Source of the DNA: an uncultured Verrucomicrobiales bacterium
GTDB taxonomy: Bacteria > Verrucomicrobiota > Verrucomicrobiia > Verrucomicrobiales > Akkermansiaceae
DNA: 64,000 bases
Direction: 5' to 3'
Assembly (NCBI GenBank): GCA_963934155.1
Contig: CAWVXI010000001.1
Coordinates: forward strand, 52,174 to 116,173
Part shown: positions 384 through 54,187 of the stretch, one piece after another
Position numbering within the stretch: the stretch's first letter is position 1
Layout: each line of letters begins with the position of its first letter
Translations under genes and position numbers: made by a program
Notes under the pieces: model-generated
Database searches by the model: none
What the model saw: only the letters and a program-made list of their open reading frames with translations
What the model was told of the DNA's origin: nothing

Positions 384-1745
384 TTATTGGTCTAGATCGT
401 AGATTTTTTTTGGCTCTGGAATGATGACGTCGCAATCAGGTAGCTTTTCAGCCAACTGGTCACGGAACCATTCGCTTGCTCCGATGTCTCCGTGAACGAG
501 GAACATTTTTCTCGGTGCGACCTTAAGCATGTAGGCTAGCAACGCCTCTCTGTCGGAATGCCCGGAGAAATCAAATATCTTCATATCGCAGTTAAACTGC
601 ACCGGGGTAAGGTCAGGGCTGAGCTCTATTACGTCGCCTTGCTTTGAGGCTCGGATCGCGCCAGCAGGGGAGTCCGGAGCGGCGTAGCCTACAAATAGTA
701 ATGAGTTTTTAGGATTAGAGATGAATCCGTGAGCAAAGCCATTAGAGATGGTTTTCTCGGTCATCATACCGCTCGATAGCGCGTAGATGGCGCCTGGTTG
801 ATAGACGACCGGTTTGCGTGAGCCTTTCTTAGAGGCCGCGCGCACATCCATGTCTCTAAAGATCTGGAATCCAGGCATCTGGCGTGGCGTAGTGTCTGCG
901 AATTCATCGAAAAGGATGGTCATCTTAGTGCTAAGGCCACCGATAAATACTGGCGTTTTTTCAGGGATTCTGCCGCTCTCTTTGAACTTGTGCAGCATTG
1001 TCAATAGTTCTTGAGTCTTGCCCATAGCGAAGACAGGAATCAGCGCTGATCCACCACCTTCAAGAGTTTTCAAGATAGCATCGCAAAGCTTCTGCTCCTC
1101 TTTTTCTCTCTCGTAGGCTGGATCACGCGGTACCGATCCACGGGTGGTCTCGATGATTAGGGTGTCTATTCCTTCCTCTGGGAATTTCGCCCCAGTGATG
1201 AGCGTTTGATCCTCGAAGTTAATATCGCCGGTATAGAATACCCGCTGATCATCCTTTTCCACCATCACACCGGAAGATCCGAGAATGTGCCCGGCATCGT
1301 AAAGCTGGGCGGAGGTGTCCATTGTGATATCGATTCTCTCGCCATAGTCACGCTTGCGCCAGCGTGTCTCTAGTCTATCAAGTTCACGGTGTCCGTAGAG
1401 TGGATATTCGGTGATGCCTAGCTCGGTTCGCTTGCTCTGCATGACGTTCACGGAGTTGTGCAGTAGGGCGTCTGTTAGTCCTGCCGTAGCTGCTGTCATA
1501 TAGACTTCTGCGTCTGGTTGATCACGCATCAATACCGGTAGTGTTCCTGCATGGTCGAGGTGACTATGGGTGAGGAAAATGGCATCCACTGAGTTATGCT
1601 GGAGTTCATCATACTGAGGGATCGCTTCCCCGGCTTCTTGCTTAGGATGCATTCCTGCATCGAATACTATTTTACAATCGCCCGTGTCTAACATGTAACT
1701 GTTAGAACCTATCTCCGTGTCTCTTAATAGACTTTGAAAAATCAT
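384..1745 (-). CDS. MBL-fold metallo-hydrolase of the beta-CASP (RNA-metabolising, CPSF/RNase J-like) type
   Basis: The 453-aa ORF carries the HSHLDHAG metallo-beta-lactamase motif. Its length and C-terminal HGD-type region fit beta-CASP enzymes. Confidence 0.75.
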   Translation of the reverse strand: MIFQSLLRDTEIGSNSYMLDTGDCKIVFDAGMHPKQEAGEAIPQYDELQHNSVDAIFLTHSHLDHAGTLPVLMRDQPDAEVYMTAATAGLTDALLHNSVNVMQSKRTELGITEYPLYGHRELDRLETRWRKRDYGERIDITMDTSAQLYDAGHILGSSGVMVEKDDQRVFYTGDINFEDQTLITGAKFPEEGIDTLIIETTRGSVPRDPAYEREKEEQKLCDAILKTLEGGGSALIPVFAMGKTQELLTMLHKFKESGRIPEKTPVFIGGLSTKMTILFDEFADTTPRQMPGFQIFRDMDVRAASKKGSRKPVVYQPGAIYALSSGMMTEKTISNGFAHGFISNPKNSLLFVGYAAPDSPAGAIRASKQGDVIELSPDLTPVQFNCDMKIFDFSGHSDREALLAYMLKVAPRKMFLVHGDIGASEWFRDQLAEKLPDCDVIIPEPKKIYDLDQ

Positions 1746-1934
1746 TATGGAATGAGCATCTATATTGTCTCAGTAAAAGCGAGAATAAAAAGTGGCTCAG
1801 CGAGCCGTTGACTAGTCATTGGCTGATTGGTTATTGGCAGGATTCTCTGTATCGGATGATGAAACGATGTTATTTCAGAACGTTTCATCGTGCTGGACCA
1901 ATGACGTGACAGAGGCAGCATAACGGTGGGATGG

Positions 1935-3764
1935 CTAAATCTGGTCTAGCTGCAACTTTTTCCAACCCAGAATAGCTTCCCAGATCATCCAGATCTCTAA
2001 TACAATAGTAGCCAGTCCCATTCCAACGAGTAACCATTGGCCTTGTTCAATCCAGCTTAGGTTAGATCCTATCGCTGCTACGAATACTTGATAGAGCATC
2101 GCCCAAGCGGGGATGATGAGCATGAAGACAGTAGGGATGGCGACGAACCAGATGGGTAGATTTTTGCGTTTCATCCAGAAGAGGATCACTAGGAATGCCA
2201 GTCCAGCAAGAAGCTGATTCATCGCGCCGAAGAGTGGCCAGAGGATCACTCCGCCAGAGCCAAATTTTCCTAGCAGACCATCTGAGCCAGGCAGTGCTGG
2301 AATAGAGGCGATGCCGAATGCGATGACAATAGCGATGATTGTCACGAAGTGTTTATTGGTGAGCGGGTGAGGTTTGGTTCTTTCTTGGTCTCCTCTAGTT
2401 ATGAAACAAGCAATCAATTCCTGCATTACATATCTCTGAAGTCGGCAGGCAGTGTCGAGAGTGGTGGCTGCAAATGATGCGACAAAGACTCCCATGAGAG
2501 CGAGGGAGAATCCCTTGCTAAAACCGAGCGCCGTGAGGAAATTACTCGCGCCAACTACGAAGGCACTGACCTTAGCTCCAAGGCCTTTTGAACTCCCCCA
2601 GTCTGCGTATTTTGTATTCCAGGCATCGATTCCTGTGAGAATTGTTCCATCGGGAGTAGTGAATCCTAGCCCCAGTCCAGCGACACAAGCGAGGATCACT
2701 AGCACGGCGAGAAATCCCTCTGTGAGCATGGAGCCGTAGCCTACGAACTTGGCATCGGATTCACATTTAAGTTGTTTCGATGAGGTGCCTGAAGAGACCA
2801 GACAGTGGAAACCAGAGATAGCTCCGCAGGCGATGGTGACGAATAAAAAGGGAAAGATCAGAGGTAAGTTTTTTGCCGTGACATTTTCTTCAATGGCAGG
2901 CGCGACAATTTCTAACGGAGGGCGCACACCATCAATAGGGCTACCGCCATAAATCCCCGCATAAACGAGTCCGATGACAACCAGACCGAGTGCGGAAATG
3001 AGCTGTAAGGAGTTAATATAGTCTCGAGGCTGCAAAAGAGTCCAGACGGGCAACACTGAAGCGACGTAGGAATAGACTAACAGGACACCGACCCAGGTCA
3101 TTAGCGACCAGTTACTGAGCATCTCATTAAAACCATGCACCTGCCCGATGTCGCCATAGATGACGGAAACATACATCACAACTAGTGCGATGATTGAGGG
3201 GATGAGGATATTGAAGCCTTTTTTATGAGCGAGTGTACCGATGATCAGAGCGAGAGGGATTTGGATCATACATGGAGTGATTGCCGCTGGGAACATCCGG
3301 AAAACAACCGCGATCACTAGCCCAAAAATTGCCAGCACTAATGTTAGCGCCATGAAAAGAATCAGCAGAAACAAAAATCTTACCCGTGGGGTGATGACTT
3401 TACCTGCGACATCGCCGACGGTCTGCCCTTTATTTCTGAGCGAAACCACCAGCGCCCCAAAATCATGAACCGCACCAATAAAGATAGAACCAAACAGCAC
3501 CCATAGCAATGCTGGAACCCAGCCCCACATTACAGCGAGTGCTGGTCCTACGATAGGCCCAGTTCCCGCGATAGAGGTGAAGTGATGGCCGAAAACGATG
3601 CCTTTCTTCGTCGGGACAAAGTCCTCACCATCTTCAAGTTCCACTGAAGGGACACGGGCATTTTTATCAAGTTTGAAAATTTTCTCACCGAGCCATTTCC
3701 CGTAAGTATTGTAAGCGATAATGTATAGGATCAGCGATCCCAGCGCGATAGCGAGCGTTTGCAT
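1935..3764 (-). CDS. cstA: Carbon starvation protein A (CstA-family peptide/pyruvate transporter)
   Basis: The 609-aa polytopic membrane ORF has an N-terminus (AYNTYGKWLGEKIF) and overall architecture typical of CstA. Confidence 0.8.
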   Translation of the reverse strand: MQTLAIALGSLILYIIAYNTYGKWLGEKIFKLDKNARVPSVELEDGEDFVPTKKGIVFGHHFTSIAGTGPIVGPALAVMWGWVPALLWVLFGSIFIGAVHDFGALVVSLRNKGQTVGDVAGKVITPRVRFLFLLILFMALTLVLAIFGLVIAVVFRMFPAAITPCMIQIPLALIIGTLAHKKGFNILIPSIIALVVMYVSVIYGDIGQVHGFNEMLSNWSLMTWVGVLLVYSYVASVLPVWTLLQPRDYINSLQLISALGLVVIGLVYAGIYGGSPIDGVRPPLEIVAPAIEENVTAKNLPLIFPFLFVTIACGAISGFHCLVSSGTSSKQLKCESDAKFVGYGSMLTEGFLAVLVILACVAGLGLGFTTPDGTILTGIDAWNTKYADWGSSKGLGAKVSAFVVGASNFLTALGFSKGFSLALMGVFVASFAATTLDTACRLQRYVMQELIACFITRGDQERTKPHPLTNKHFVTIIAIVIAFGIASIPALPGSDGLLGKFGSGGVILWPLFGAMNQLLAGLAFLVILFWMKRKNLPIWFVAIPTVFMLIIPAWAMLYQVFVAAIGSNLSWIEQGQWLLVGMGLATIVLEIWMIWEAILGWKKLQLDQI

Positions 3765-23290: not shown

Positions 23291-24181
23291 ATGAGCATTG
23301 AACGATTGATCGATTCCTTTATCCTCTACCTCGCCACGGAGAGAGGGCTATCTGCATCGTATCAGCTGTCAGTTAGGCAGACTCTAGAAAAGCTCTCTTT
23401 ATGGATGGAACAGAAAAAGCTTAGCCCCAATGATGTGGGGACCGAGGAGCTAGCAGATTTTCTAGCCAGTCGGAAGAAAGAGGGACTAGCCGCATCATCA
23501 CTGCGCATCACCGTTGTGCATCTCAAGGTCTTTTGGAGGTTTATCTCTGGCAGAAATTACGTGATGGTTGATGTAGCCGAGCCGCTCCTAGCTCCTAAGC
23601 CAAATGCCACACTACCAGACTCAGTGCATCAGTCATCGATTGAGAAACTATTAGAAGGAATAGATACCATGAAATTCTTAGGCAAGCGTGACCGCGCTAT
23701 CCTAGAGCTCTTCTACGCCTCCGGTCTCCGTCTATCCGAGGTCTGTGGAGCCAGACTGGAAAATCTAGACACAGATGACGGCTTCATCCGCGTGACCGGA
23801 AAGGGGAATAAAACGCGTATCGTCCCCGTGGGGATCCAGGCCAGGGACTGTATAGAGCGGTATGTGAAATTAGAGCGTCCCGGGCTTCTGAAGCCTAAGT
23901 CATCATCCGAGATATTCCTCTCTGTCAGAGGTGGGGCACTCAGTCCTGAGCGAGTGCGAGCTATTGTGAAGCAGCGCGCCCTAGCTGCCGGGATTGATTC
24001 TAAAATATACCCACACCTCCTTCGTCACTCCTTCGCAACTCACCTCCTACAGAACGGTGCAGATCTCCGCGTGATCCAGGAAATGCTAGGCCACGCCGAT
24101 ATCTCCACTACCCAGATCTACACCCACGTAGACCAAAAACATCTCAAGGAAACCCATAAGAAATTCCATCCTAGAGGCTAG
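23291..24181 (+). CDS. Tyrosine recombinase XerC/XerD family
   Basis: LLRHSFATHLLQNGADLRVIQEMLGHADISTTQIYTHV carries the catalytic R..H..R..Y box, and the N-terminal SAM-like domain is present. I cannot separate XerC from XerD by eye. Confidence 0.85.
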   Translation: MSIERLIDSFILYLATERGLSASYQLSVRQTLEKLSLWMEQKKLSPNDVGTEELADFLASRKKEGLAASSLRITVVHLKVFWRFISGRNYVMVDVAEPLLAPKPNATLPDSVHQSSIEKLLEGIDTMKFLGKRDRAILELFYASGLRLSEVCGARLENLDTDDGFIRVTGKGNKTRIVPVGIQARDCIERYVKLERPGLLKPKSSSEIFLSVRGGALSPERVRAIVKQRALAAGIDSKIYPHLLRHSFATHLLQNGADLRVIQEMLGHADISTTQIYTHVDQKHLKETHKKFHPRG

Positions 24182-26822: not shown

Positions 26823-27110
26823 ATGGGACAACAATACAATAAAGTTTTAAAGAGAAAGCGTCGTAAGGAATACCTACGTCGCAAAAAGGCACTAGCTAAC
26901 TCTACCGTGGCTGTGAAGAAGAGCAAGCCAGCTGCTAAGAAGGCCGCACCAGCGAAGAAAGTTGTTGCTAAGAAAGCCGCGAAGAAGGTTGCTGCTAAGA
27001 AAGCACCAGCCAAGAAAGCTGCCGCTAAGAAAGCACCAGCGAAAAAAGCTGCTGCTAAGAAGGCACCAGCCAAGAAAGCCGCTAAGAAGGTGGAAGAAGA
27101 GGAGAAGTAA
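26823..27110 (+). CDS. Histone-H1-like Lys/Ala-rich DNA-binding protein
   Basis: The sequence is MGQQYNKVLKRKRRKEYLRRKK, followed by AKKAAPAKK/AAKKAPAKKAAAKK tandem repeats. The start is at the ATG at 26823. The minus-strand ORF 26762-27073 is its mirror artefact. Confidence 0.7.
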   Translation: MGQQYNKVLKRKRRKEYLRRKKALANSTVAVKKSKPAAKKAAPAKKVVAKKAAKKVAAKKAPAKKAAAKKAPAKKAAAKKAPAKKAAKKVEEEEK

Positions 27111-41941: not shown

Positions 41942-42046
41942 CTTTTTTATTTGTTTGGCTTCATCCTGTTGGTGTCTCCTACAGAGAAACTCTATTAGTT
42001 AGTTTATTATTTATAGAGGAAGAGCAGAGAATGTATATTATAACAT

Positions 42047-42121
42047 TTCCCCAGCCAGCTTTGCTGCACTTTCAAATCATTCCATCAAACGATCAATCCA
42101 GTATCACTGTGAGGATGGTAT
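42047..42121. repeat. Left copy of a 66-nt perfect / about 75-nt near-perfect inverted repeat (partner at 54112-54187)
   Basis: I checked base by base that 42056-42121 equals the reverse complement of 54112-54177. Beyond that there are one mismatch and one 1-nt indel. Confidence 0.9.
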
Positions 42122-42123
42122 TA

Positions 42124-42357
42124 TCACCCTATATCACCAGATATGCAGAAGAAGAATCCGAAAAATTTAGGGAATAAAGCACCTAAAATTGTTCCTGTGA
42201 CTAAACTGGGTAAACAGAACATAAATAGTTCACTCAAAGGTAATAATGGTATCGACAAAGAAGTCGTTGCTACGAGTGTTAGCGAAATAATGAGACAGAA
42301 AATAACTCCTCCTAATATTCCAAACAGTTTATTTGATAGAGTTGTCATTTTTAGCAT
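42124..42357 (-). CDS. Small membrane protein, hypothetical
   Basis: The 77-aa ORF has two or three hydrophobic helices. Its stop codon abuts the inverted-repeat copy. Confidence 0.4.
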   Translation of the reverse strand: MLKMTTLSNKLFGILGGVIFCLIISLTLVATTSLSIPLLPLSELFMFCLPSLVTGTILGALFPKFFGFFFCISGDIG

Positions 42358-42507
42358 AGCGTCTTAGCATAACCAACCCAACGGAGGGGGCGAACGTGGA
42401 CGAAAAGGTTGATGGATTAGTTAGAGAAAAACTTGTCAGAAAGCGCGCCGATGGGTTAGGATGCAGCGATTTAGGGTTAGGCATTTTTACGAGTTTAATT
42501 GTGTTGA

Positions 42508-43104
42508 TTATAGACTACTTGAAAACGGTCTGTGCATATATGGAATATCATCAATATCAGTATACTTCCCACCAACAATGGCTTTCTTATTATTTAAAAG
42601 AGTTATTCCCTTATGTGGAGGATAACCGTATTGCGGCTTTTTGCCATAACCTAGTAGCAGATATCTAACTTCGTATTCATTAGCTGCTACCTTGATAAAC
42701 AGTATATTTCTAAAGGCTGGTAAAGCATCACTTATATCTTCACTGATAAAGATATGACCTTCATCAGAGGTCTGAATTTGTAGATTTGAACCGAGGGCGT
42801 CGTCCCATTGTTTTGTGAAGGCACTTTCTGCTATGATCTTTGAATTCTTATTTGATAAATGAAGAACATAGTGGGATGAAGTAGGATCTCGTTGTCCAAG
42901 TAACTTGGCTGTAGAATAGTCCGTTTTATCCATGAGGCTTTCACCTAACTTTAATTGTAGATAACTACTCGAATTGGGTATCAGAATTATATTACTATTT
43001 TTGTTCAAGATTGGATGTTCAGACATAGGAGTGAGGTCTTCTTCATTAATTGAAGAACAACTTACTAATATTCCGCTGAACAATATTATTACCGAGAATT
43101 TCAT
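42508..43104 (-). CDS. Lipoprotein, hypothetical
   Basis: The 198-aa ORF has the lipobox ILVSCSS. It lies in the AT-rich region. Confidence 0.55.
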   Translation of the reverse strand: MKFSVIILFSGILVSCSSINEEDLTPMSEHPILNKNSNIILIPNSSSYLQLKLGESLMDKTDYSTAKLLGQRDPTSSHYVLHLSNKNSKIIAESAFTKQWDDALGSNLQIQTSDEGHIFISEDISDALPAFRNILFIKVAANEYEVRYLLLGYGKKPQYGYPPHKGITLLNNKKAIVGGKYTDIDDIPYMHRPFSSSL

Positions 43105-43114
43105 TATTTCATCA

Positions 43115-43286
43115 AGATTCTATGGCTGAAGCTTGTTGTGAGCCGTGCCATTGTAAAAAAGGATGATGAACTTAGGGTTTTCGTGGGCGATCTCTCTGAC
43201 ACGAGGTCGGAGAGACCTATCCAACATGATTATCAATAATCATACCCAGCGGGCGACCACTAGGGAGTGCAAGCCAATGTCTCATC
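43115..43286 (+). ncRNA. Candidate bridge-RNA-like leader of the IS110-type element (speculative)
   Basis: This is 172 nt of conserved non-coding sequence 5' of the transposase stub. It has several hairpins: ATGGC..GCCAT around GCTTG-ttg-TGAGC, then TCTCTC..GAGAGA, then the ATGATTAT-ca-ATAATCAT palindrome at 43226-43243. The same region in copy D is 46921-47092. Confidence 0.25.
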
Positions 43287-43549
43287 ATGAAAGAACTCTA
43301 CTACATCGGACTAGACGTGCACAAGGACACAGTTGGCACTGTCATCATTCGGCTCCTTCGTATAACATTAAACGTCACCAAGACCCCCCACTAGTGTAAC
43401 AACCCGCTAAGGCAGAAAACGGAATCAAAATAGTATAACTAACGGCCACCCAGAGCCTTCGACCCTGGGCTCGTGTCATCACGTGCGTAGCTATACGGGA
43501 CAACAACCGATCACTTCGATGTTCGCTACCGTTCAATCAAAGCTATCTT
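43115..43549 (+). mobile_element. Type-1 repeat copy A: internally deleted IS110-family element (94-nt shared module, leader, transposase N- and C-terminal stubs, right end)
   Basis: The ATG at 43287 gives MKELYYIGLDVHKDTV, the canonical IS110/DEDD transposase N-terminus. It is fused directly to ..RLLRITLNVTKTPH, a C-terminal-type tail. Copy A is near-identical to copy D (46921-47408). Confidence 0.75.
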
Positions 43550-44955
43550 TGAGGTTCTACTTTCTGTGACTTCCGCTTTGTCATCAACTGTGCCCCGATC
43601 CGTTTTTTCCATGCGTTGAGTTTCTCTTTCAATTTAGCAGTTACTTCGGGCATAGTGTCAGCCAGGTTTCTTTGTTCACCTGGATCTTTAATCAAATCAT
43701 AGAGTTCAAAGGCATTTGCTTGGTCATAAGCAGACCTTTCAAACCATTCGATCAATTTGTAGCGCCCCATTCGGACGGCACCTTGTGGACCTAGGCCTAG
43801 GCTGTGATAATGTGGGAAATGCCAATAAACTGCTTCACGAGTTAGTTTCGCCCCCGAATCCTTCAAGAGAGGAAGAAAATTGATACCGTCAACATCCTTG
43901 GCTGTGGAAGATCCACCGGCAATGGCTGTGATAGTAGGAAAGAAATCATTACTTATCACAACCTCTCCGCACTCACTTCCGGGGGTGATGACACCCGGCC
44001 ATTTGATAATTAGCGGCATGCGAATGCCGCCCTCATAGAGATCACCTTTGCTGCCCCTGAACGGCTTGCCATTCTTGGGTCCCAATTGTCCATTATCTGA
44101 ATAGAAAAATACTATCGTATTCTTTTCAAGTCCCAGTTTTTCTAGTGTCATTAGGATGGTGCCCACGCTCTTATCCAGTGTCTCAAGCATCGCTGCCTGC
44201 TTAGGGTTGTTTCTTTTGTTCGTTTTTGCCTCAGGCTTCGTGGCATATTTCTCAACAAGAGCTTTTTTCTCGATTTCCGGAGAGTGAATGCTGTTGTGCG
44301 TCACGTAGCAGAAAAAAGGCTTGTTCTTGTTGTTCTGAATAAAAGCAATGGATCTTTCCGTGATTTCCCGAACATGATGCCAGTCTTCGTCGTACATGCT
44401 TTTCGGGCCAGCGCCTGGCTTGTGGGTTGTTAGTACATCATCAAAGCCCTGCGAGCCGGGGTCTCCGGGTCGACCGGGTTTGTATTTCTTGTCTACATTC
44501 AAATGCCATTTTCCGAAATGCCCGGTTACATATCCGGCGTTTTTCAGGGATTCCGCGATGGTGACCTCTTTGAGAGGAAGGTGTTTCTGCCAGTCCGGCG
44601 TAATGAGTTTTTTGTCTTTTGGATTCCCTCCCGGAATAAAGTCGGTGAGGTGAAGGCGAGCAGGATATTTGCCCGTCATGATACTCGCCCTTGTAGGCGA
44701 ACAGATAGGTGCGGCCGCATAGGCATTAGTAAATCTCACCCCTTCTTTTACCAGTCGATCAATATTTGGAGTCTCGTAAAATTTGCTACCATAAGAGCTC
44801 AGTTGATAGCGGCCAAGGTCATCCGCTAGTATGAAAACAATATTGGGCTTGGTTCTTCCATCATCCGCAAGTCCATACGCACAATACGGAAATGCAAGCA
44901 GAACAACACTGAATGCTTTTAGGAATGATCTATAATTAGTGAGAATGTTACTCAT
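43543..44955 (-). CDS. Sulfatase (formylglycine-dependent arylsulfatase family)
   Basis: It has a signal peptide and the CSPTRASIMTG (C-x-P-x-R) motif. DDLG and GKWH motifs are present, and the length is 470 aa. Confidence 0.85.
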   Translation of the reverse strand: MSNILTNYRSFLKAFSVVLLAFPYCAYGLADDGRTKPNIVFILADDLGRYQLSSYGSKFYETPNIDRLVKEGVRFTNAYAAAPICSPTRASIMTGKYPARLHLTDFIPGGNPKDKKLITPDWQKHLPLKEVTIAESLKNAGYVTGHFGKWHLNVDKKYKPGRPGDPGSQGFDDVLTTHKPGAGPKSMYDEDWHHVREITERSIAFIQNNKNKPFFCYVTHNSIHSPEIEKKALVEKYATKPEAKTNKRNNPKQAAMLETLDKSVGTILMTLEKLGLEKNTIVFFYSDNGQLGPKNGKPFRGSKGDLYEGGIRMPLIIKWPGVITPGSECGEVVISNDFFPTITAIAGGSSTAKDVDGINFLPLLKDSGAKLTREAVYWHFPHYHSLGLGPQGAVRMGRYKLIEWFERSAYDQANAFELYDLIKDPGEQRNLADTMPEVTAKLKEKLNAWKKRIGAQLMTKRKSQKVEPQR

Positions 44956-44979
44956 GAGTATTCTTTCTGTATTGTGTCG

Positions 44980-45183
44980 AGATTTTATGGCTGAAGCTTG
45001 TTGTGAGCCGTGCCATTGTATAAAAGGATGATGAGCTTAGGGTTTTCGTGGGTGATCTCTCTGACACCAGGTCAATTCCGATGATCGCTTTGAATGGCTT
45101 ATCTGAGGTATTTTTATTGATTTTCATCACAAGGTAGAAACGCAGATCACTGGAGTGACCTCGACTACCTTCTCATTCTATCT
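44980..45183. mobile_element. Type-2 repeat copy B (94-nt shared module plus an opposite-strand transposase N-terminal stub)
   Basis: The shared module is at 44980-45073. The minus-strand ATG at 45127 gives MKINKNTSDKPFKAIIGIDLVS. The right end is ...ccttctcattctatct. Confidence 0.65.
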
Positions 45184-45186
45184 GGG

Positions 45187-45486
45187 CTATTTTTTTCTTT
45201 GGAGTCCGAAGTTCGGGTGGCGCTTGTCGTGTCTCAAAACTGCTATCCGGATGAGAGTAGAATCAGCTTCATACAAAAAATGATATGGAAATGTCCTTAG
45301 TTGAACTCTCCTCAAACCTCCATCTGAAAAATGATGCCCTGTTGGATTCTGCTCTATCTTACAAATTGCGGACTCTATCTCATCGAAAAAACGATCACCA
45401 AGTTTAGTGCCACCTTCTTGATCATAGTGACTCATTGCTGAGCTAAGATCTTTCTGGATGAGTCTGTGATATATAAAATCTGCCAT
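45187..45486 (-). CDS. Type II toxin, RelE/ParE family
   Basis: The 99-aa ORF contains FPYHFLYEADSTLIRIAVLRHDKRHP, typical of ParE/RelE. It lies 1 nt downstream of the antitoxin gene. Confidence 0.75.
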   Translation of the reverse strand: MADFIYHRLIQKDLSSAMSHYDQEGGTKLGDRFFDEIESAICKIEQNPTGHHFSDGGLRRVQLRTFPYHFLYEADSTLIRIAVLRHDKRHPNFGLQRKK

Positions 45487-45487
45487 A

Positions 45488-45697
45488 CTAACGACCTAAG
45501 CTCGCTTTGATCTGACTCCAGGAGCGTCTAGATGAAGGGTCAGCCTTCATCTCTTCGATTCTTCTCTTAGCTTCCAGTGAGCCATCATCTATATCTGATA
45601 GCACTGCTGGTAATGTTGCTAATAGATCAGCGACAAGTGAAGCTCGTTCATCTTCAGGCAATGTCATAGCACCTGCTTGTATTTCTGCTATATTCAT
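45488..45697 (-). CDS. Antitoxin (addiction module component, TIGR02574-like)
   Basis: The 69-aa ORF contains MTLPEDERASLVADLLATL ... EAKRRIEEM ... SWSQIKASL. Confidence 0.65.
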   Translation of the reverse strand: MNIAEIQAGAMTLPEDERASLVADLLATLPAVLSDIDDGSLEAKRRIEEMKADPSSRRSWSQIKASLGR

Positions 45698-45845
45698 ATT
45701 TCAAGCGTAGCATAATAAAACCGAAAAGCTATATTATTTTCAGCGTCCTAGCGTAGTCAATCCCACGGAGAGAGCGATGGTGAACGAAGGTGTTGAGGTT
45801 GTAATTGTGTGAAAAGCTCCGACGAAAATGCGCCCATGGTGTTGG

Positions 45846-46370
45846 CTACTGCGTCTTCGCTTTAGTTGCTAGCTTTTTCCATTTTTCTCGACTAAGAAAT
45901 GCATGTTCTTCTCTGAGTATTCCAAACTTCTCTGGTTTGTGATAGATCATCCATATTGCAAGTGATCGGTTCTGTTTTGGAAACGCCTTATAGTGTGGAC
46001 ACATTGAATCGGGATGATCGATAATATCTAATGTAATCTTATCTCCTACCTTAATATTCTTAGAAATAGGTTGAACTACTTGCAGAGTAAATCGATGGAT
46101 GAATCGTAACTTATAGTAAATGGTCTCTTTGGGTTTATCTGCTTTGTATGCTTCATTTTGGATTTCTTTAAACTGTTTAGAGGTGATTTTGTATGGGCGA
46201 CCATCTAGTAGAAACTTCTTTTCAACTTTAACGATGTAACCTTCAAATGTCTTTGCTGAATCTTCATATTTATCAAGTAGCTCATTAGTTATTGGTGTGA
46301 GAGAAGAACCTGAAAAGGCAACTACTGTAGAGCATATAATCGTAAGGATAGTTATATATAATATTTTCAT
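45846..46370 (-). CDS. Secreted hypothetical protein
   Basis: The 174-aa ORF has a signal peptide. I recognise no motif. Confidence 0.5.
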   Translation of the reverse strand: MKILYITILTIICSTVVAFSGSSLTPITNELLDKYEDSAKTFEGYIVKVEKKFLLDGRPYKITSKQFKEIQNEAYKADKPKETIYYKLRFIHRFTLQVVQPISKNIKVGDKITLDIIDHPDSMCPHYKAFPKQNRSLAIWMIYHKPEKFGILREEHAFLSREKWKKLATKAKTQ

Positions 46371-46379
46371 TTTTTAGCG

Positions 46380-46585
46380 AGATTCTATGGCTGAAGCTCA
46401 TCTTGAGCCGCGCCATTGTAAAAAAGGATGATGAGCTTAGGGTTTTCGTGGGCTATTTCTCTGACACGAGGTCAATTCCGATGATCGCTCTGAACTGTCT
46501 GTCTTGTGTATTATTACTTGTTTTCATAAGATAGGTAGAATCGCAGATTACTGGAGTGACCTCGACTACCTTCTCATTCTATCTT
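46380..46585. mobile_element. Type-2 repeat copy C
   Basis: The shared module is at 46380-46473. The minus-strand ATG at 46527 gives MKTSNNTQDRQFRAIIGIDLVS. The right end is ...ccttctcattctatctt. Confidence 0.65.
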
Positions 46586-46586
46586 G

Positions 46587-46910
46587 TTAGAATCGATTTT
46601 TAAAATACAATTCAATATATGGTCGAGAATAGCTATATAAATATGCGGTATATATGAAACTACTTATTCCCGCGCCCACTCCTGCAAATACTCCCATCAT
46701 AACACTTCTCGGTAAAACAGGGTATTCGTTATAAAGGCAATGACCGAGCCATATTCCTGCACCGCAAAACAGCAGCATAAGGAACGAAGCACAAGGAATC
46801 AGTCTAGTTCGAGGAACAGATTTGTAGATAGCATTCCACGAAATTTTCCGTTCCTCTTTCGATAACCCCTTAAATTCAGGGATATCGTTATATGTCCAAA
46901 ATATCTTCAT
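46587..46910 (-). CDS. Small membrane protein (2 TM), hypothetical
   Basis: The ORF is 107 aa and has two hydrophobic helices. Confidence 0.45.
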   Translation of the reverse strand: MKIFWTYNDIPEFKGLSKEERKISWNAIYKSVPRTRLIPCASFLMLLFCGAGIWLGHCLYNEYPVLPRSVMMGVFAGVGAGISSFIYTAYLYSYSRPYIELYFKNRF

Positions 46911-46920
46911 TATATTGTCG

Positions 46921-47408
46921 AGATTCTATGGCTGAAGCTTGTTGTGAGTCGTGCCAGTGTAAAAAAGGATGATGAGCTTAGGGGTTTCGTGGGCTATTTG
47001 TCTGATACGAGGCCGGAGAGACCTATCCAACATGATTATCGATAATCATACGCAGCGGGCGACCACTAGGGAGTGCAAGCCAATGTCTCATCATGAAAGA
47101 ACGATACTCCATCGGACTAGACGTGCACAAGGACACAGTTGCCATTGCATCAATAAAATAAACTTCTCGCGCAGAGGCGACCTATCACAGCACTTGTGGT
47201 TCGGCAATCGGCTCCTTCGTATAACATTAAACGTCATCAAGAATCCCCACTGGTGTAACAACCCGCTAAGGCAGAACACGGAATCAAAATCGCATCACTA
47301 ACGGCCACCCAGAGCCCTCGACCCTGGGTTCGTGTCATCACGTGCGTAGCTATAGGGGACAACAACCGATCACTTCGATGTTCGCTACCGCTCAATCAAA
47401 GCTATCTT
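46921..47408 (+). mobile_element. Type-1 repeat copy D: internally deleted IS110-family element, retaining about 55 nt more of the transposase gene than copy A
   Basis: The ATG at 47093 gives MKERYSIGLDVHKDTVAIASIK, followed by a stop. A later frame reads RLLRITLNVIKNPHW. The 18-nt perfect palindrome atgattatcgataatcat is at 47032-47049. Confidence 0.75.
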
Positions 47409-47420
47409 GTTAGCTTTGTA

Positions 47421-47813
47421 TTATTCTTTCCTTGAGCGCTGATAAATCGTGATTCTTAGATCTGCACCGCACTTCGAAATCTGATGTATAACCTCGCTCG
47501 TCAAATCTGAATTAAAAGCCCCCTCAGGGAGATAGGATTCGTAGCCTATATCGAATACTCTTCGGTTCGCACGAGTCCAAGTAGAATGTGCCTCTTCAGT
47601 TAAACTGTTAATAGCTCTGCAAAAAGAAGCTATGATAGAATTAGGATCATTTCGAGATTCCTCATCTTCTATCTCGAAGGTCGCCATAAATCCATTATCT
47701 ATCGAGTCGTTGTAGAGCACAATAGCTCCAGCCGTAACTAACTCGCGACATAGGCGATCCAATGATTCAGAAGATTCGACTTCAAGGTCAACGTTGATGA
47801 ATGCTGAGGGCAT
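47421..47813 (-). CDS. Hypothetical cytoplasmic protein
   Basis: The ORF is 130 aa and acidic. I recognise no motif. Confidence 0.45.
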   Translation of the reverse strand: MPSAFINVDLEVESSESLDRLCRELVTAGAIVLYNDSIDNGFMATFEIEDEESRNDPNSIIASFCRAINSLTEEAHSTWTRANRRVFDIGYESYLPEGAFNSDLTSEVIHQISKCGADLRITIYQRSRKE

Positions 47814-48079
47814 ATTTTTAAGCGTACAGTTTATGAGTGCACCCTAATTGATATGAATTAGGGTGTGTAGGGTTAAGTTTTGTGATTTTTTTTAACTTTC
47901 ATAGGTTTCTTACGATGAGTTAGTTCACTTTGTTATTTTGTTCGTTTTAAGTCAATAGGGTTTTAGTTAGGGTCGGTTGGTGTCCTTGTTTCGATGGATA
48001 ATCGATATGATGCTTTAGCCTATCGATCTTTCTATGAGCTTAAATGACTCAGCGGGGGCTGGCGGGTTCTTGCTGCTTT

Positions 48080-49489
48080 CTAGGTGGCGAGCTCCTCGGC
48101 GGGGTAGGTCCAAATCTCACTCAGGGTAGGATGATAGTGGGGGATCTCTAACAGTTGGCGGGCAGTGGCACCAAATGACATCGCTACCACGATCTCATGG
48201 ATGAGCTCAACCGCTTCCGGCCCGATGACTGCTCCGCCGATGATTTTACCTGTTTCCTCGGCTACGATGAGCTTCACGAATCCGTGCTCACTGCCGTGCA
48301 CCATGGATTTCCCGTGGTCGTTGAATGGGTAGTCTGCGGTCTTGTAGTTGATGTTTGCCGCGCGGGCCTCTTTCTCTGACATGCCGACTGCTGCGATCTG
48401 TGGCTCGGTGAAGATGCCATAGAGCGAGAGCTGGTAATCCACTTTAATCGGGTCTGAGGTGTCGTTATTTAGCTGTTTGAGAATATTCCCTGCCGCAGCT
48501 TCTGCTTGGATGATGGCCAGATGCACCACGTCTAGCGGGCTACAGACGTCGCCGGCAGCGTAAATGTGTGCTTGGCTGGACTGCATGGTTAGGTCAACTT
48601 TTATTTTGCCTTTAGCTAGCTCTATATCGGCTAGGTCACAGCCTAAGTTTTTTGTATTTGGACTTCTACCTAGGCCACAGAGGATTTCATCTGAGCTCAC
48701 TTGTGTGGGGTGATTCTGATGGTTAAAATGCACCGTCTTTTTGCCTTCAGTGTCTGTGGTGACGCGCTGGATGTCAGTGTCGCAGAAGATGTTTACTCCG
48801 AGCGCTTCGAGGGCTACTTGGATTTCTTTAGCGATGTCTTGATCCATGGTTGAGAGTAGTTGATCACTACGCTGAATGATGGTCACCTCAGTCTGACATG
48901 CGGCATAGTAGTAGGCTAGCTCTAGGGCTATGGCGCCGCCTCCTAAGATGGTGATTGATTTGGGTAATGATTGAGCGGTGAGGACATCGTCACTTGTGAG
49001 GAATCCCGTTTCAGCTAGTCCTGCTATCTCGGGGATAAATACTGTAGATCCATTAGCGATGATGAAATGAGATGCGGTGAGAATTTGGCTGGCACCATTT
49101 TTTTGTGAGACGGAGATGGTGTGTGGGTCTGTAAAATTAGCGGTGCCTCTGATGAGGTCAAATTTTCCATTGACTAACTGCTCTTGTCGATAGCCTTTAA
49201 ATTCATCGATTAGTTGGTTTTTTCTCTCAATGACGGCCTTCGTATTGATCTGTGGATTCTCTAGCGTGATACCAAATTTCTCCGCTTCTAGAATCTGATT
49301 AAACCTCTTGGCGGACTCAATAATCGCCTTGCTGGGCATGCACCCTCTCAGAATACATAGCCCACCTAATTCATCAGCCCCGTCGATGATCGCTGTCTTT
49401 ATCCCTTCGTCACTGAGTAACCTTGCCGCTGCGTAGCCTGCACTTCCGCCTCCGATGACGATGACCTGATAATCTGATTTTTTTTGCAT
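48080..49489 (-). CDS. Class I pyridine nucleotide-disulfide oxidoreductase (dihydrolipoyl dehydrogenase / glutathione reductase / MerA-like family)
   Basis: GGGSAGYAAA is the FAD motif. GGLCILRGCMPSK is the redox-active CxxxxC. The C-terminal dimerisation region carries HYHPTLSE. Confidence 0.8.
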   Translation of the reverse strand: MQKKSDYQVIVIGGGSAGYAAARLLSDEGIKTAIIDGADELGGLCILRGCMPSKAIIESAKRFNQILEAEKFGITLENPQINTKAVIERKNQLIDEFKGYRQEQLVNGKFDLIRGTANFTDPHTISVSQKNGASQILTASHFIIANGSTVFIPEIAGLAETGFLTSDDVLTAQSLPKSITILGGGAIALELAYYYAACQTEVTIIQRSDQLLSTMDQDIAKEIQVALEALGVNIFCDTDIQRVTTDTEGKKTVHFNHQNHPTQVSSDEILCGLGRSPNTKNLGCDLADIELAKGKIKVDLTMQSSQAHIYAAGDVCSPLDVVHLAIIQAEAAAGNILKQLNNDTSDPIKVDYQLSLYGIFTEPQIAAVGMSEKEARAANINYKTADYPFNDHGKSMVHGSEHGFVKLIVAEETGKIIGGAVIGPEAVELIHEIVVAMSFGATARQLLEIPHYHPTLSEIWTYPAEELAT

Positions 49490-54111: not shown

Positions 54112-54187
54112 ATACCATCCTCACAGTGATACTGGATTGATCGTTTGATGGAATGATTTGAAAGTGCAGCAAAGCTGACTGGGGGAA
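54112..54187. repeat. Right copy of the inverted repeat (partner at 42047-42121)
   Basis: 54112-54177 is the exact reverse complement of 42056-42121. It lies 47 nt downstream of the mdh stop. Confidence 0.9.

Follow-up and report, generated by a model that had tools for sequence, protein, structure and literature searches.

The IS1111 group of the IS110 family of insertion sequences (IS) is characterized by subterminal repeats and a long non-coding region 3' of the recombinase gene, and the seek or bridge RNA of these elements is encoded downstream of that gene (PMC11187229, PMC11208160). In the IS91 family, the oriIS end adjoins a GTTC-type tetranucleotide (PMC13181058). Non-coding modules of an IS110-family element can also be present as solo genomic copies, as described for ISPpu9 with ssr9 (PMC12288879). 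We analyzed a 64,000-nucleotide (nt) stretch of contig CAWVXI010000001.1 from an uncultured Verrucomicrobiales bacterium (the window), in which four intergenic repeats, A to D, carry stubs of IS110-family recombinase genes. Like the ISPpu9 modules they are solo copies, but those of ssr9 represent an RNA gene whereas the copies in the window represent an end without guide RNA. A first-pass annotation had taken A and D for internally deleted IS110-family elements with both termini retained and a bridge-RNA candidate in the leader. Comparison of repeats A-D with contigs labelled L001-L027 pointed elsewhere: the repeats are probably non-functional chimeric scars of IS insertions at attC-like hairpins, with the guide region lost.

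Results

Copies A to D and their recombinase stubs

Each of the four repeats was placed between successive minus-strand open reading frames (ORFs). A left module of ~92 nt, which opens with AGATTCTATGGCTGAAGC and closes with ..GACACGAGGTC, is common to all of them, and CTATCT(T) is the terminus of 4/4 copies. Copies A and D showed 92% identity over 242 nt and 94% over 204 nt; the right limit of A was refined to 43553, directly before GTTC (43554-43557). The plus-strand stubs of A and D translate as MKELYYIGLDVHKDTV (ATG 43287) and MKERYSIGLDVHKDTVAIASIK* (ATG 47093), whereas B and C have a different stub, MK(I/T)..AIIGIDL, located on the minus strand and reading into the ~92-nt module. In tblastn, the A/D stubs matched the full-length PF01548+PF02371 protein of L004 at 87% over 38 amino acids (aa) (E=7e-15), confirming that these repeats open with a genuine IS110-family N-terminus, as had been annotated. 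It was also correct that most of the recombinase gene is gone: the recombinase content of the window consists of N-terminal stubs only, of ~16-38 codons. The annotation had further noticed that D is longer than A and had considered independent or nested deletions; the difference lies in the stub, which is ~50 nt longer in D, so that the A/D deletions are nested.

Full-length relatives of the two IS types

An exact-pattern scan for the shared module identified one contig of a metagenome-assembled genome (L001) and ten marine metagenome contigs (L002-L011); a viral contig collection scanned for the 94-nt module gave 0 matches. L004 comes from a sister strain and represents the locus orthologous to C-gene-D, with the same 107-aa gene and the same flanks, and it holds two complete IS110-family genes (2041-3192 and 418-1506(-), both PF01548+PF02371). 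The plus-strand gene, at the position of D, encodes 384 aa starting with MKELYYIGLDVHKDTVAIASIKSTS; the minus-strand gene, at the position of C, encodes 362 aa starting with MKINKNTSDKPFKAIIGIDLGDTKH. The two recombinases are distant from each other (32% over 66 aa). Protein searches gave relatives of each in the thousands, and contigs were examined for a sample of these.

The first element, here called AD-type, was found in at least 6 unrelated contexts (L012, L013, L016, L017, L020 and L021/L022), and its full-length copies begin at the same base as copies A-D. Because the left end starts in these contexts exactly at the base corresponding to 43115/46921, the first 94 nt, which the annotation had been unable to assign to element or target, belong to the element. 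The AD-type element is ~1.9 kb long: the leader measures 112-172 nt, the recombinase gene 374-400 codons and the non-coding DNA downstream ~590 nt. Its left end starts with (N)AGATTCTATGGCTGAAGC and its right end reads ..CTTGACAAAACTTCAGCCATATC; the full-length copies close with ..TTGACAAAACTTCAGCCATATC and include the inverted repeats ATGGCTGAAG/CTTCAGCCAT. The subterminal repeats are AGATTC+TATGGCTGAAG on the left and CTTCAGCCATA+TC on the right, with the exact right boundary placed to within +/-1-2 nt. Repeats of the IS1111 group measure 7-17 bp and carry short terminal extensions, 6-7 bp on the left and ~3 bp on the right. By these hallmarks, the AD-type parent is assigned to the IS1111 group of the IS110 family. 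In circles of this group, a promoter is formed where the right and left ends join. A perfect TTGACA is positioned 16 nt from the AD-type right end in 8 relatives, and no convincing -10 element was identified in the left end.

A search allowing up to 3 mismatches did not find the AD-type right end with its right inverted repeat (..TTGACAAAACTTCAGCCATATC, also written ..CTTCAGCCATATC) in the window. Neither the recombinase body (tblastn) nor the 3' non-coding region, marked by GACGTTATGAG, was found in the window (nhmmer, E up to 10; 3-mismatch patterns). A full-length relative with the same ends, as the annotation had envisaged, exists as far as the left end is concerned (L004, L012, L013, L016, L017, L020 and L021), whereas the right end of A and D is foreign.

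The second element, BC-type, is present at full length in L004 and L023-L026. Its length is ~1.6 kb, of which the left end (AGATAGAATGAGAAGG..) accounts for 57 nt and the non-coding DNA 3' of the gene for ~480 nt, and on the right it terminates in ..TTGACAAACCTTCTCATGGAAG; its subterminal repeats are AGATAGA+ATGAGAAGG on the left and CCTTCTCAT+GGAAG on the right. We assign it to the IS1111 group as a second element, unrelated to AD-type. The 20-codon stub of copy B matched the L004 minus-strand recombinase at 100% over 20 aa (tblastn), and the AD and BC left ends are joined in this copy at a common AGGTC. The BC parts of the chimeras fall into two sub-lineages that are only ~85% alike. Of each IS type, only the left repeat is present in the window.

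From position 929 to 1017 and further on, L008 holds an AD-type left end with stub that is broken after ..CCTATCACAG by direct repeats, TGTCAAACTAAGG twice and CCCGTGCGGAATTG three times, which resemble the terminus of a different mobile element.

The right part of A and D

RLLRITLNV, at the start of the right part of A and D, had been annotated as a C-terminal tail of the recombinase. The right part has stops in all frames and showed no significant similarity to AD-type or BC-type elements on either strand. A 49-residue query including the RLLRITLNV frame, compared with 5.8 billion proteins, retrieved one 71-aa hypothetical ORF, which was judged spurious. On L027, the contig of this ORF, the RLLRITLNV sequence lies at the end of the non-coding stretch that follows an IS91-family transposase gene (Zn_Tnp_IS91+Y2_Tnp), and a tyrosine-recombinase gene precedes that gene; L017 likewise carries Zn_Tnp_IS91+Y2_Tnp. 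By blastn, A and D align to the final 209-222 nt of the L027 3' non-coding DNA at 79-82%. Since the right part corresponds to the L027 3' end, what had been read as a C-terminal-type tail and a shared right end is foreign non-coding DNA. We assign it to an unrelated rolling-circle element of the IS91 family, of which it represents the last 125-230 nt. No IS91-like transposase gene was found in the window.

Two other origins of the right part were considered and rejected. As a diverged collinear continuation of the recombinase, an origin that would have accounted for the near-constant length of the A/D chimeras, it scored within the shuffle range in tblastn, local and collinear global alignments (z up to 2.2); as an inverted left end or 3' non-coding region of a BC-type relative, it showed no significant similarity on either strand.

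The A/D fragment closes with a small palindrome, CAAAG-CTAT-CTTTG, and then GGG (right-end string ..CAATCAAAGCTATCTT); subterminal palindromes are present but weak. The tetranucleotide that follows is GTTC in A, L011 and L003-4, GCTC in L001-2 and GTTG in L027, and 5/6 A/D copies have GTTC or near-GTTC as the right flank. IS91-family elements have an HUH Y2 transposase and make no target duplication. The palindrome followed by GGG and GTTC, the position beside a GTTC/CTTG-type tetranucleotide downstream of a Zn_Tnp_IS91+Y2_Tnp gene and the circular assembly of one unit are all as in the IS91/ISCR family. Unlike in that family, a tyrosine-recombinase gene lies upstream of the transposase gene; the window keeps 125-230 nt, and its oriIS is a predicted one. 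In copy A, the IS91-derived part contributes the final codons and the stop of the minus-strand sulfatase gene (43543..44955). In copy D, the junction falls inside a hairpin of the IS91-like element, with the microhomology CAGC.CTTG.TG.

In L027 (1-2848), the first 127 nt equal the last 127 nt, so that the contig represents one 2721-nt IS91-like unit as a circle or tandem. Its ori and ter ends abut, in the order ..CTATCTTTGGG, GTTG, AACAGAGCC.

The guide-RNA region and the leader

The core of the AD-type 3' non-coding region was strongly conserved where the recombinases are 72-99% identical to that of L004. Its consensus structure comprises 39 pairs, 10 of them with compensatory changes, and 93.8% of cells are paired; 0/500 shuffles matched the observed values, and pairing fell to 23-40% in slid controls. 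An unpaired segment, NNGACGUU (also given as NNGACGTT), is the reverse complement of the DNA directly right of the element, AACGTCNN. The match extends over 7-8 contiguous nt from the junction in 6/9 loci, and the variable 7th guide base co-varies with the flank: L015 alone has C there, and has it in guide and flank alike. A guide for the left flank was not identified in the comparison of AD-type 3' regions, and an Rfam scan of the full-length relatives found group II introns only and no bridge-RNA family. The covariation identifies the 3' non-coding region as the predicted guide-RNA region of the AD-type element, behaving as the published IS1111 seek/bridge RNAs do. Because it is absent from the window, copies A-D can neither guide nor catalyze recombination.

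The consensus of 10 leaders (alignment A3) contains five helices, with 94.8% of cells paired and 8 compensatory pairs; 0/500 shuffles reached it, and slid controls gave 36-51% pairing. A 5' hairpin spans the subterminal repeat, and a 10-bp hairpin (helix 5) shows four covarying pairs. In a long-range helix (helix 3), GAUGAUGAG, ~120 nt upstream, pairs with CUCAUCAU(G), again with four covarying pairs; this helix takes in the first two bases of the start codon (partner strand also written CUCAUCAUG). The leader had been described as conserved and hairpin-rich, which was borne out by its covarying helices, although its single-sequence fold is unexceptional (z = -1.67). Besides the 5' hairpin and the helix closing on the start codon, the consensus has two inner hairpins; paired internal loops of the two-loop bridge-RNA type were not found in it, nor were guide loops. 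As indicated by the covariation, the 172-nt leader is best regarded as the 5' untranslated region of the element, and the start-codon helix may restrain translation of read-through transcripts. Fold-back inhibition of transposase translation is known from IS10/IS50-type elements. The leader resembles these in that a helix joins an upstream segment to the start-codon region, a likeness seen from covariation only.

These results bear on the reading proposed in the first-pass annotation, in which A and D are MITE-like (miniature inverted-repeat transposable element) internal deletions that keep both IS termini and a leader-encoded bridge RNA, and so would stay mobilizable and guide-competent. The stubs and the left end are genuine, the leader helices are supported by covariation, and the left end is indeed where the bridge RNA lies in IS110-group elements in the strict sense (PMC11208160). 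However, the right end of A and D is IS91-like, and the true right end with its subterminal repeat is absent; the expected pairing of leader loops with the CTAT/CTATCTT end loses its basis, since the CTATCTT end is foreign IS91-like DNA. The structure and the complementarity to the flank are found in the 3' non-coding region of the IS1111-type parent, and the leader helices form a domain closing on the start codon instead of two internal loops. Rfam gave only chance matches to snoRNAs and miRNAs in 42000-48500 (E up to 10). Of the bridge-RNA proposal, the conserved helices remain and the two-loop fold does not, the guide region lying 3' of the gene; we consider that reading highly improbable.

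The same features define the relation to IS621 and the IS110-group bridge RNAs. The recombinase superfamily is shared, and RNA-guided target choice is indicated by the guide-flank covariation in full-length relatives. The differences are that the guide region lies 3' of the gene, that the leader is without target or donor loops and that the window copies are without guide.

attC-like hairpins and a cassette-array-like region

The DNA to the right of AD-type elements, and beyond the right ends of BC-type elements, forms an imperfect hairpin of ~115 nt with a 14-bp bulged stem, in which 11/14 pairs show compensatory changes. Integron attC sites, one per cassette, are imperfect hairpins with extrahelical bases and paired R''/R' boxes (RYYYAAC/GTTRRRY). 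The core-like motifs found here match these boxes at 6/7 positions, and no integron integrase was found among the window ORFs scanned with Pfam (mainly 37.7-58 kb); for these two reasons the hairpins are called attC-like here, and not attC. Covariance model R1 detected 2 intact hairpins in the window (Table 1).

AD-type elements are oriented antisense to the cassettes, with the right end abutting the hairpin, and BC-type elements sit on the opposite flank, convergent with AD-type. In L024, a hairpin with a BC-type element has an empty AD-type target (TTTTTAGGCT|AACGTCC) on its opposite side. An IS91-family element can occupy the BC-side flank as well: in L017, the order is AD-type element, hairpin, IS91-like element. 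Group II intron domains follow the attC-like hairpin in L012 (4812-5163) and L021 (2713-3062) (Rfam RF02001, RF01998); these introns are antisense to the neighboring genes and lie beside AD-type IS, a position and orientation in line with published group IIC-attC introns (PMC3001079). Mobile elements of three kinds thus converge on the same hairpin.

In L015, a third IS110-family gene (1868-3127, 419 aa, Transposase_20) lies ~160 nt past the attC-like hairpin that follows an AD-type element, which suggests a further IS110-type lineage tied to such sites.

Each of copies A-D takes the place of a hairpin. In the segment 42100-47850, seven short minus-strand ORF units are arranged between two intact hairpins and the four IS chimeras. 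They comprise a 77-aa membrane protein, a 198-aa lipoprotein-like ORF, the sulfatase, a ParE/RelE-like 99-aa toxin ORF with its 69-aa partner, and ORFs of 174, 107 and 130 aa. The region 42.1-47.8 kb looks like an integron-type cassette array without a nearby integrase.

A 76-nt inverted repeat (42046-42121 and 54112-54187, 97% complementary, 12 kb apart) brackets the array together with housekeeping genes, namely oxidoreductase, extracytoplasmic function (ECF) sigma, kinase/FGE-sulfatase (FGE, formylglycine-generating enzyme) and malate dehydrogenase genes; it could mediate inversion.

Copies A-D begin 8-25 nt upstream of the start codon of the next minus-strand cassette, and such a position might suggest domestication of the retained left end: with the attC-like hairpin lost, it could serve adjacent cassette genes, for instance as a promoter directed outward or as a terminator. 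For IS that target attC, outward promoters have been suggested, and their presence was demonstrated in the case of a group IIC-attC intron (PMC3001079). In addition, the 35-nt insert present in the leaders of A and D scores as a terminator-like hairpin with a T-rich run on the minus strand. On the other hand, promoter-like sites were not enriched in 42950-47500 (10 versus 9.5 expected from shuffles), none in the left end faces the cassette, and the target preference of the IS, whose usual position is 8-35 nt upstream, fully accounts for where the copies lie. Domestication is therefore very unlikely.

Origin of the chimeras

Two unrelated IS1111-group elements are normally inserted on opposite flanks of the same type of attC-like hairpin. 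In the history that we favor, the IS types would first insert on both flanks, and deletions at microhomologies would then join the 5' part of an AD-type element to the far terminus of its neighbor. Lost in this way would be the hairpin and most of the neighbor and, from the AD-type element itself, its recombinase gene, 3' guide-RNA region and right end. The A/D product would consist of the AD left end, a stub of 16-36 codons and the last 125-230 nt of an IS91-like element, and the B/C product of the opening 92 nt of that left end and an inverted BC-type left end with 20 codons; copy A would be a D-like chimera after a further ~50-nt deletion within the stub. The junctions show microhomologies of AGGTC in B/C and of CAGC.CTTG.TG, GCT and TCAAA in three classes of A/D.

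Several observations, besides the missing integrase, weigh against this history. The B/C junction is identical at B, C, L001-1 and L007, and the class i A/D junction occurs at both the A and the D locus. Identical junctions at different loci are not predicted by simple independent decay and call for copying of some kind. Ectopic gene conversion from one array junction to another would account for them, as would, for A/D, trans-mobilization from the retained oriIS end. The length from the ATG to the end is near-constant (302-316 nt) across the three A/D junction classes and is unexplained. Every chimeric A/D copy has the 35-nt leader insert (CAGCGGGCGACCACTAGGGAGTGCAAGCCAATGTC; 43245-43279 and 47051-47085), but it is missing from 9/9 full-length relatives examined, and among these no full-length element with the long-leader variant was found. 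Finally, the leader has an invariant single-stranded motif, CCTATCCAAC, that is similar to the junction of right end and flank, CCATATCAAC, and the leader may thus have a minor role in end recognition.

The need for copying is addressed by the proposal that the chimeras are hybrid elements that do not move autonomously but are copied as whole units, with a rolling-circle transposase acting in trans and starting at the A/D oriIS end. A/D copies keep at least 125 nt of that end plus GTTC, and termination would take place at the hairpin-rich IS1111 left end (one-ended transposition). Same-junction copies at different loci, the GTTC or near-GTTC flank in 5/6 A/D copies and the assembly of L027 as a circle of one IS91-like unit agree with this proposal, and IS91 needs only an 82-bp ori end and the tetranucleotide, with termination failing in 1-10% of events (PMC13181058). 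Yet the B/C chimeras have spread equally well without any IS91 part, the left boundary is without a GTTC/CTCG-type terminator site, and the window is without an IS91-like transposase. Moreover, the copies start exactly at the IS1111 left end, in the usual position of the IS, which fits an in-situ origin followed by gene conversion. We regard trans-mobilization of such units as unlikely.

It is likewise rather improbable that the chimeras constitute a new kind of hybrid element, copied as a unit by an oriIS rolling-circle or a recombinase-guided event. The termini proposed for such an element would be an IS1111-type left end together with an IS91-type oriIS (A/D) or a second IS1111 left end (B/C). 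If this were true, each hybrid copy would replace an attC-like site and 'freeze' the cassette in place.

Features in the window

The features of copies A-D and the intact hairpins are listed in Table 1.

Table 1. Coordinates of the four chimeric repeats, their parts and the intact hairpins in the window
Feature	Coordinates	Strand	Basis or remark
Copy A, whole repeat	43115-43553		
Copy A, left end/5' non-coding leader, AD-type IS1111-group	43115..43286	+	Same start base as full-length elements
Copy A, left subterminal inverted repeat TATGGCTGAAG	within 43115..43286	+	Sequence
Copy A, 35-nt leader insert	43245-43279	+	Absent from full-length relatives
Copy A, recombinase stub, codons 1-16, MKELYYIGLDVHKDTV	43287..43334	+	Translation; tblastn with L004 protein
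Copy A, IS91-family 3' non-coding (oriIS-side) end, ~208 nt	43346..43553	+	blastn versus L027, 79%/209 nt
Copy B, whole repeat	44980-45183		
Copy B, AD-type left end, first ~92 nt only	44980..45071	+	Sequence comparison
Copy B, BC-type part	45068..45183	-	Left end 45183..45128 and first 20 codons, ATG 45127, MKINKNTSDKPFKAIIGIDL
Copy C, whole repeat	46380-46584		
Copy C, AD-type left end, first ~92 nt	46380..46471	+	Sequence comparison
Copy C, BC-type left end and 20-codon stub, ATG 46527	46468..46584	-	Full-length BC-type at the orthologous L004 position
Copy D, whole repeat	46921-47408		
Copy D, AD-type left end	46921..47092	+	Orthologous L004 site holds full-length element
Copy D, recombinase stub, ~36 codons, in-frame stop at codon 23	47093..47199	+	tblastn; translation
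Copy D, IS91-like 3' end, ~209 nt	47200..47408	+	blastn versus L027, 82%/222 nt, window 47187-47408
Intact attC-like hairpin, neither IS inserted	42358..42473	+	Covariance model R1, 95 bits, E=1e-21
Second intact attC-like hairpin	45742..45858	+	R1, 89 bits, E=3e-20; blastn 87% to L015 element flank

Away from the array, a 296-aa ORF (23291-24181, plus strand) weakly resembles the IS91-like element's tyrosine recombinase (32% over 120 aa) and is probably an Xer-type recombinase. At 26922-27082, eight in-register 15-nt repeat units encode a Lys/Ala-rich run (AKKAAAKK). Lys/Ala runs of this type are typical of histone H1-like or nucleoid-associated proteins.

Discussion

The closest described elements are those of the IS1111-attC group (ISPa21, ISPst6 and ISKpn4), published as a monophyletic subgroup; the likeness is one of features. 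Shared features are the DEDD recombinase (PF01548+PF02371) in the full-length parents, subterminal inverted repeats of 10-11 bp with a short asymmetric terminal extension, a long guide-holding non-coding region 3' of the gene and, for AD-type, insertion in a fixed orientation at one hairpin end, in antisense to the cassettes. There are also differences. The 3' region here is ~590 nt long and the left end is long as well (136-172 nt). For insertions of the published group, a site near the 5' end of the hairpin has been reported (PMC3001079); AD-type elements instead occupy its cassette-3' end, and BC-type elements, although at the 5' end, are in sense orientation. The hosts here are uncultured marine bacteria, and the window holds truncated chimeras only.

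Taken by themselves, copies A-D are largely ordinary: they are what decay has left of IS from known families, although their chimeric arrangement is unusual. Their IS1111-type parents, which target attC-like hairpins, are new members of that group and a previously undescribed pair from marine bacteria. The bridge-RNA interpretation of A and D would have offered a compact, recombinase-free bridge-RNA module; the evidence shows otherwise. An IS110-type N-terminal stub with a conserved leader is not proof of a bridge RNA, since IS1111-group elements have their guide at the opposite end, and annotation of such stubs calls for caution. In the AD-type element, the 3' seek/bridge RNA region provides a natural example of co-variation between guide and flank. 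The chimeras also indicate that decay of such insertions can erase attC-like sites, so that cassettes are immobilized.

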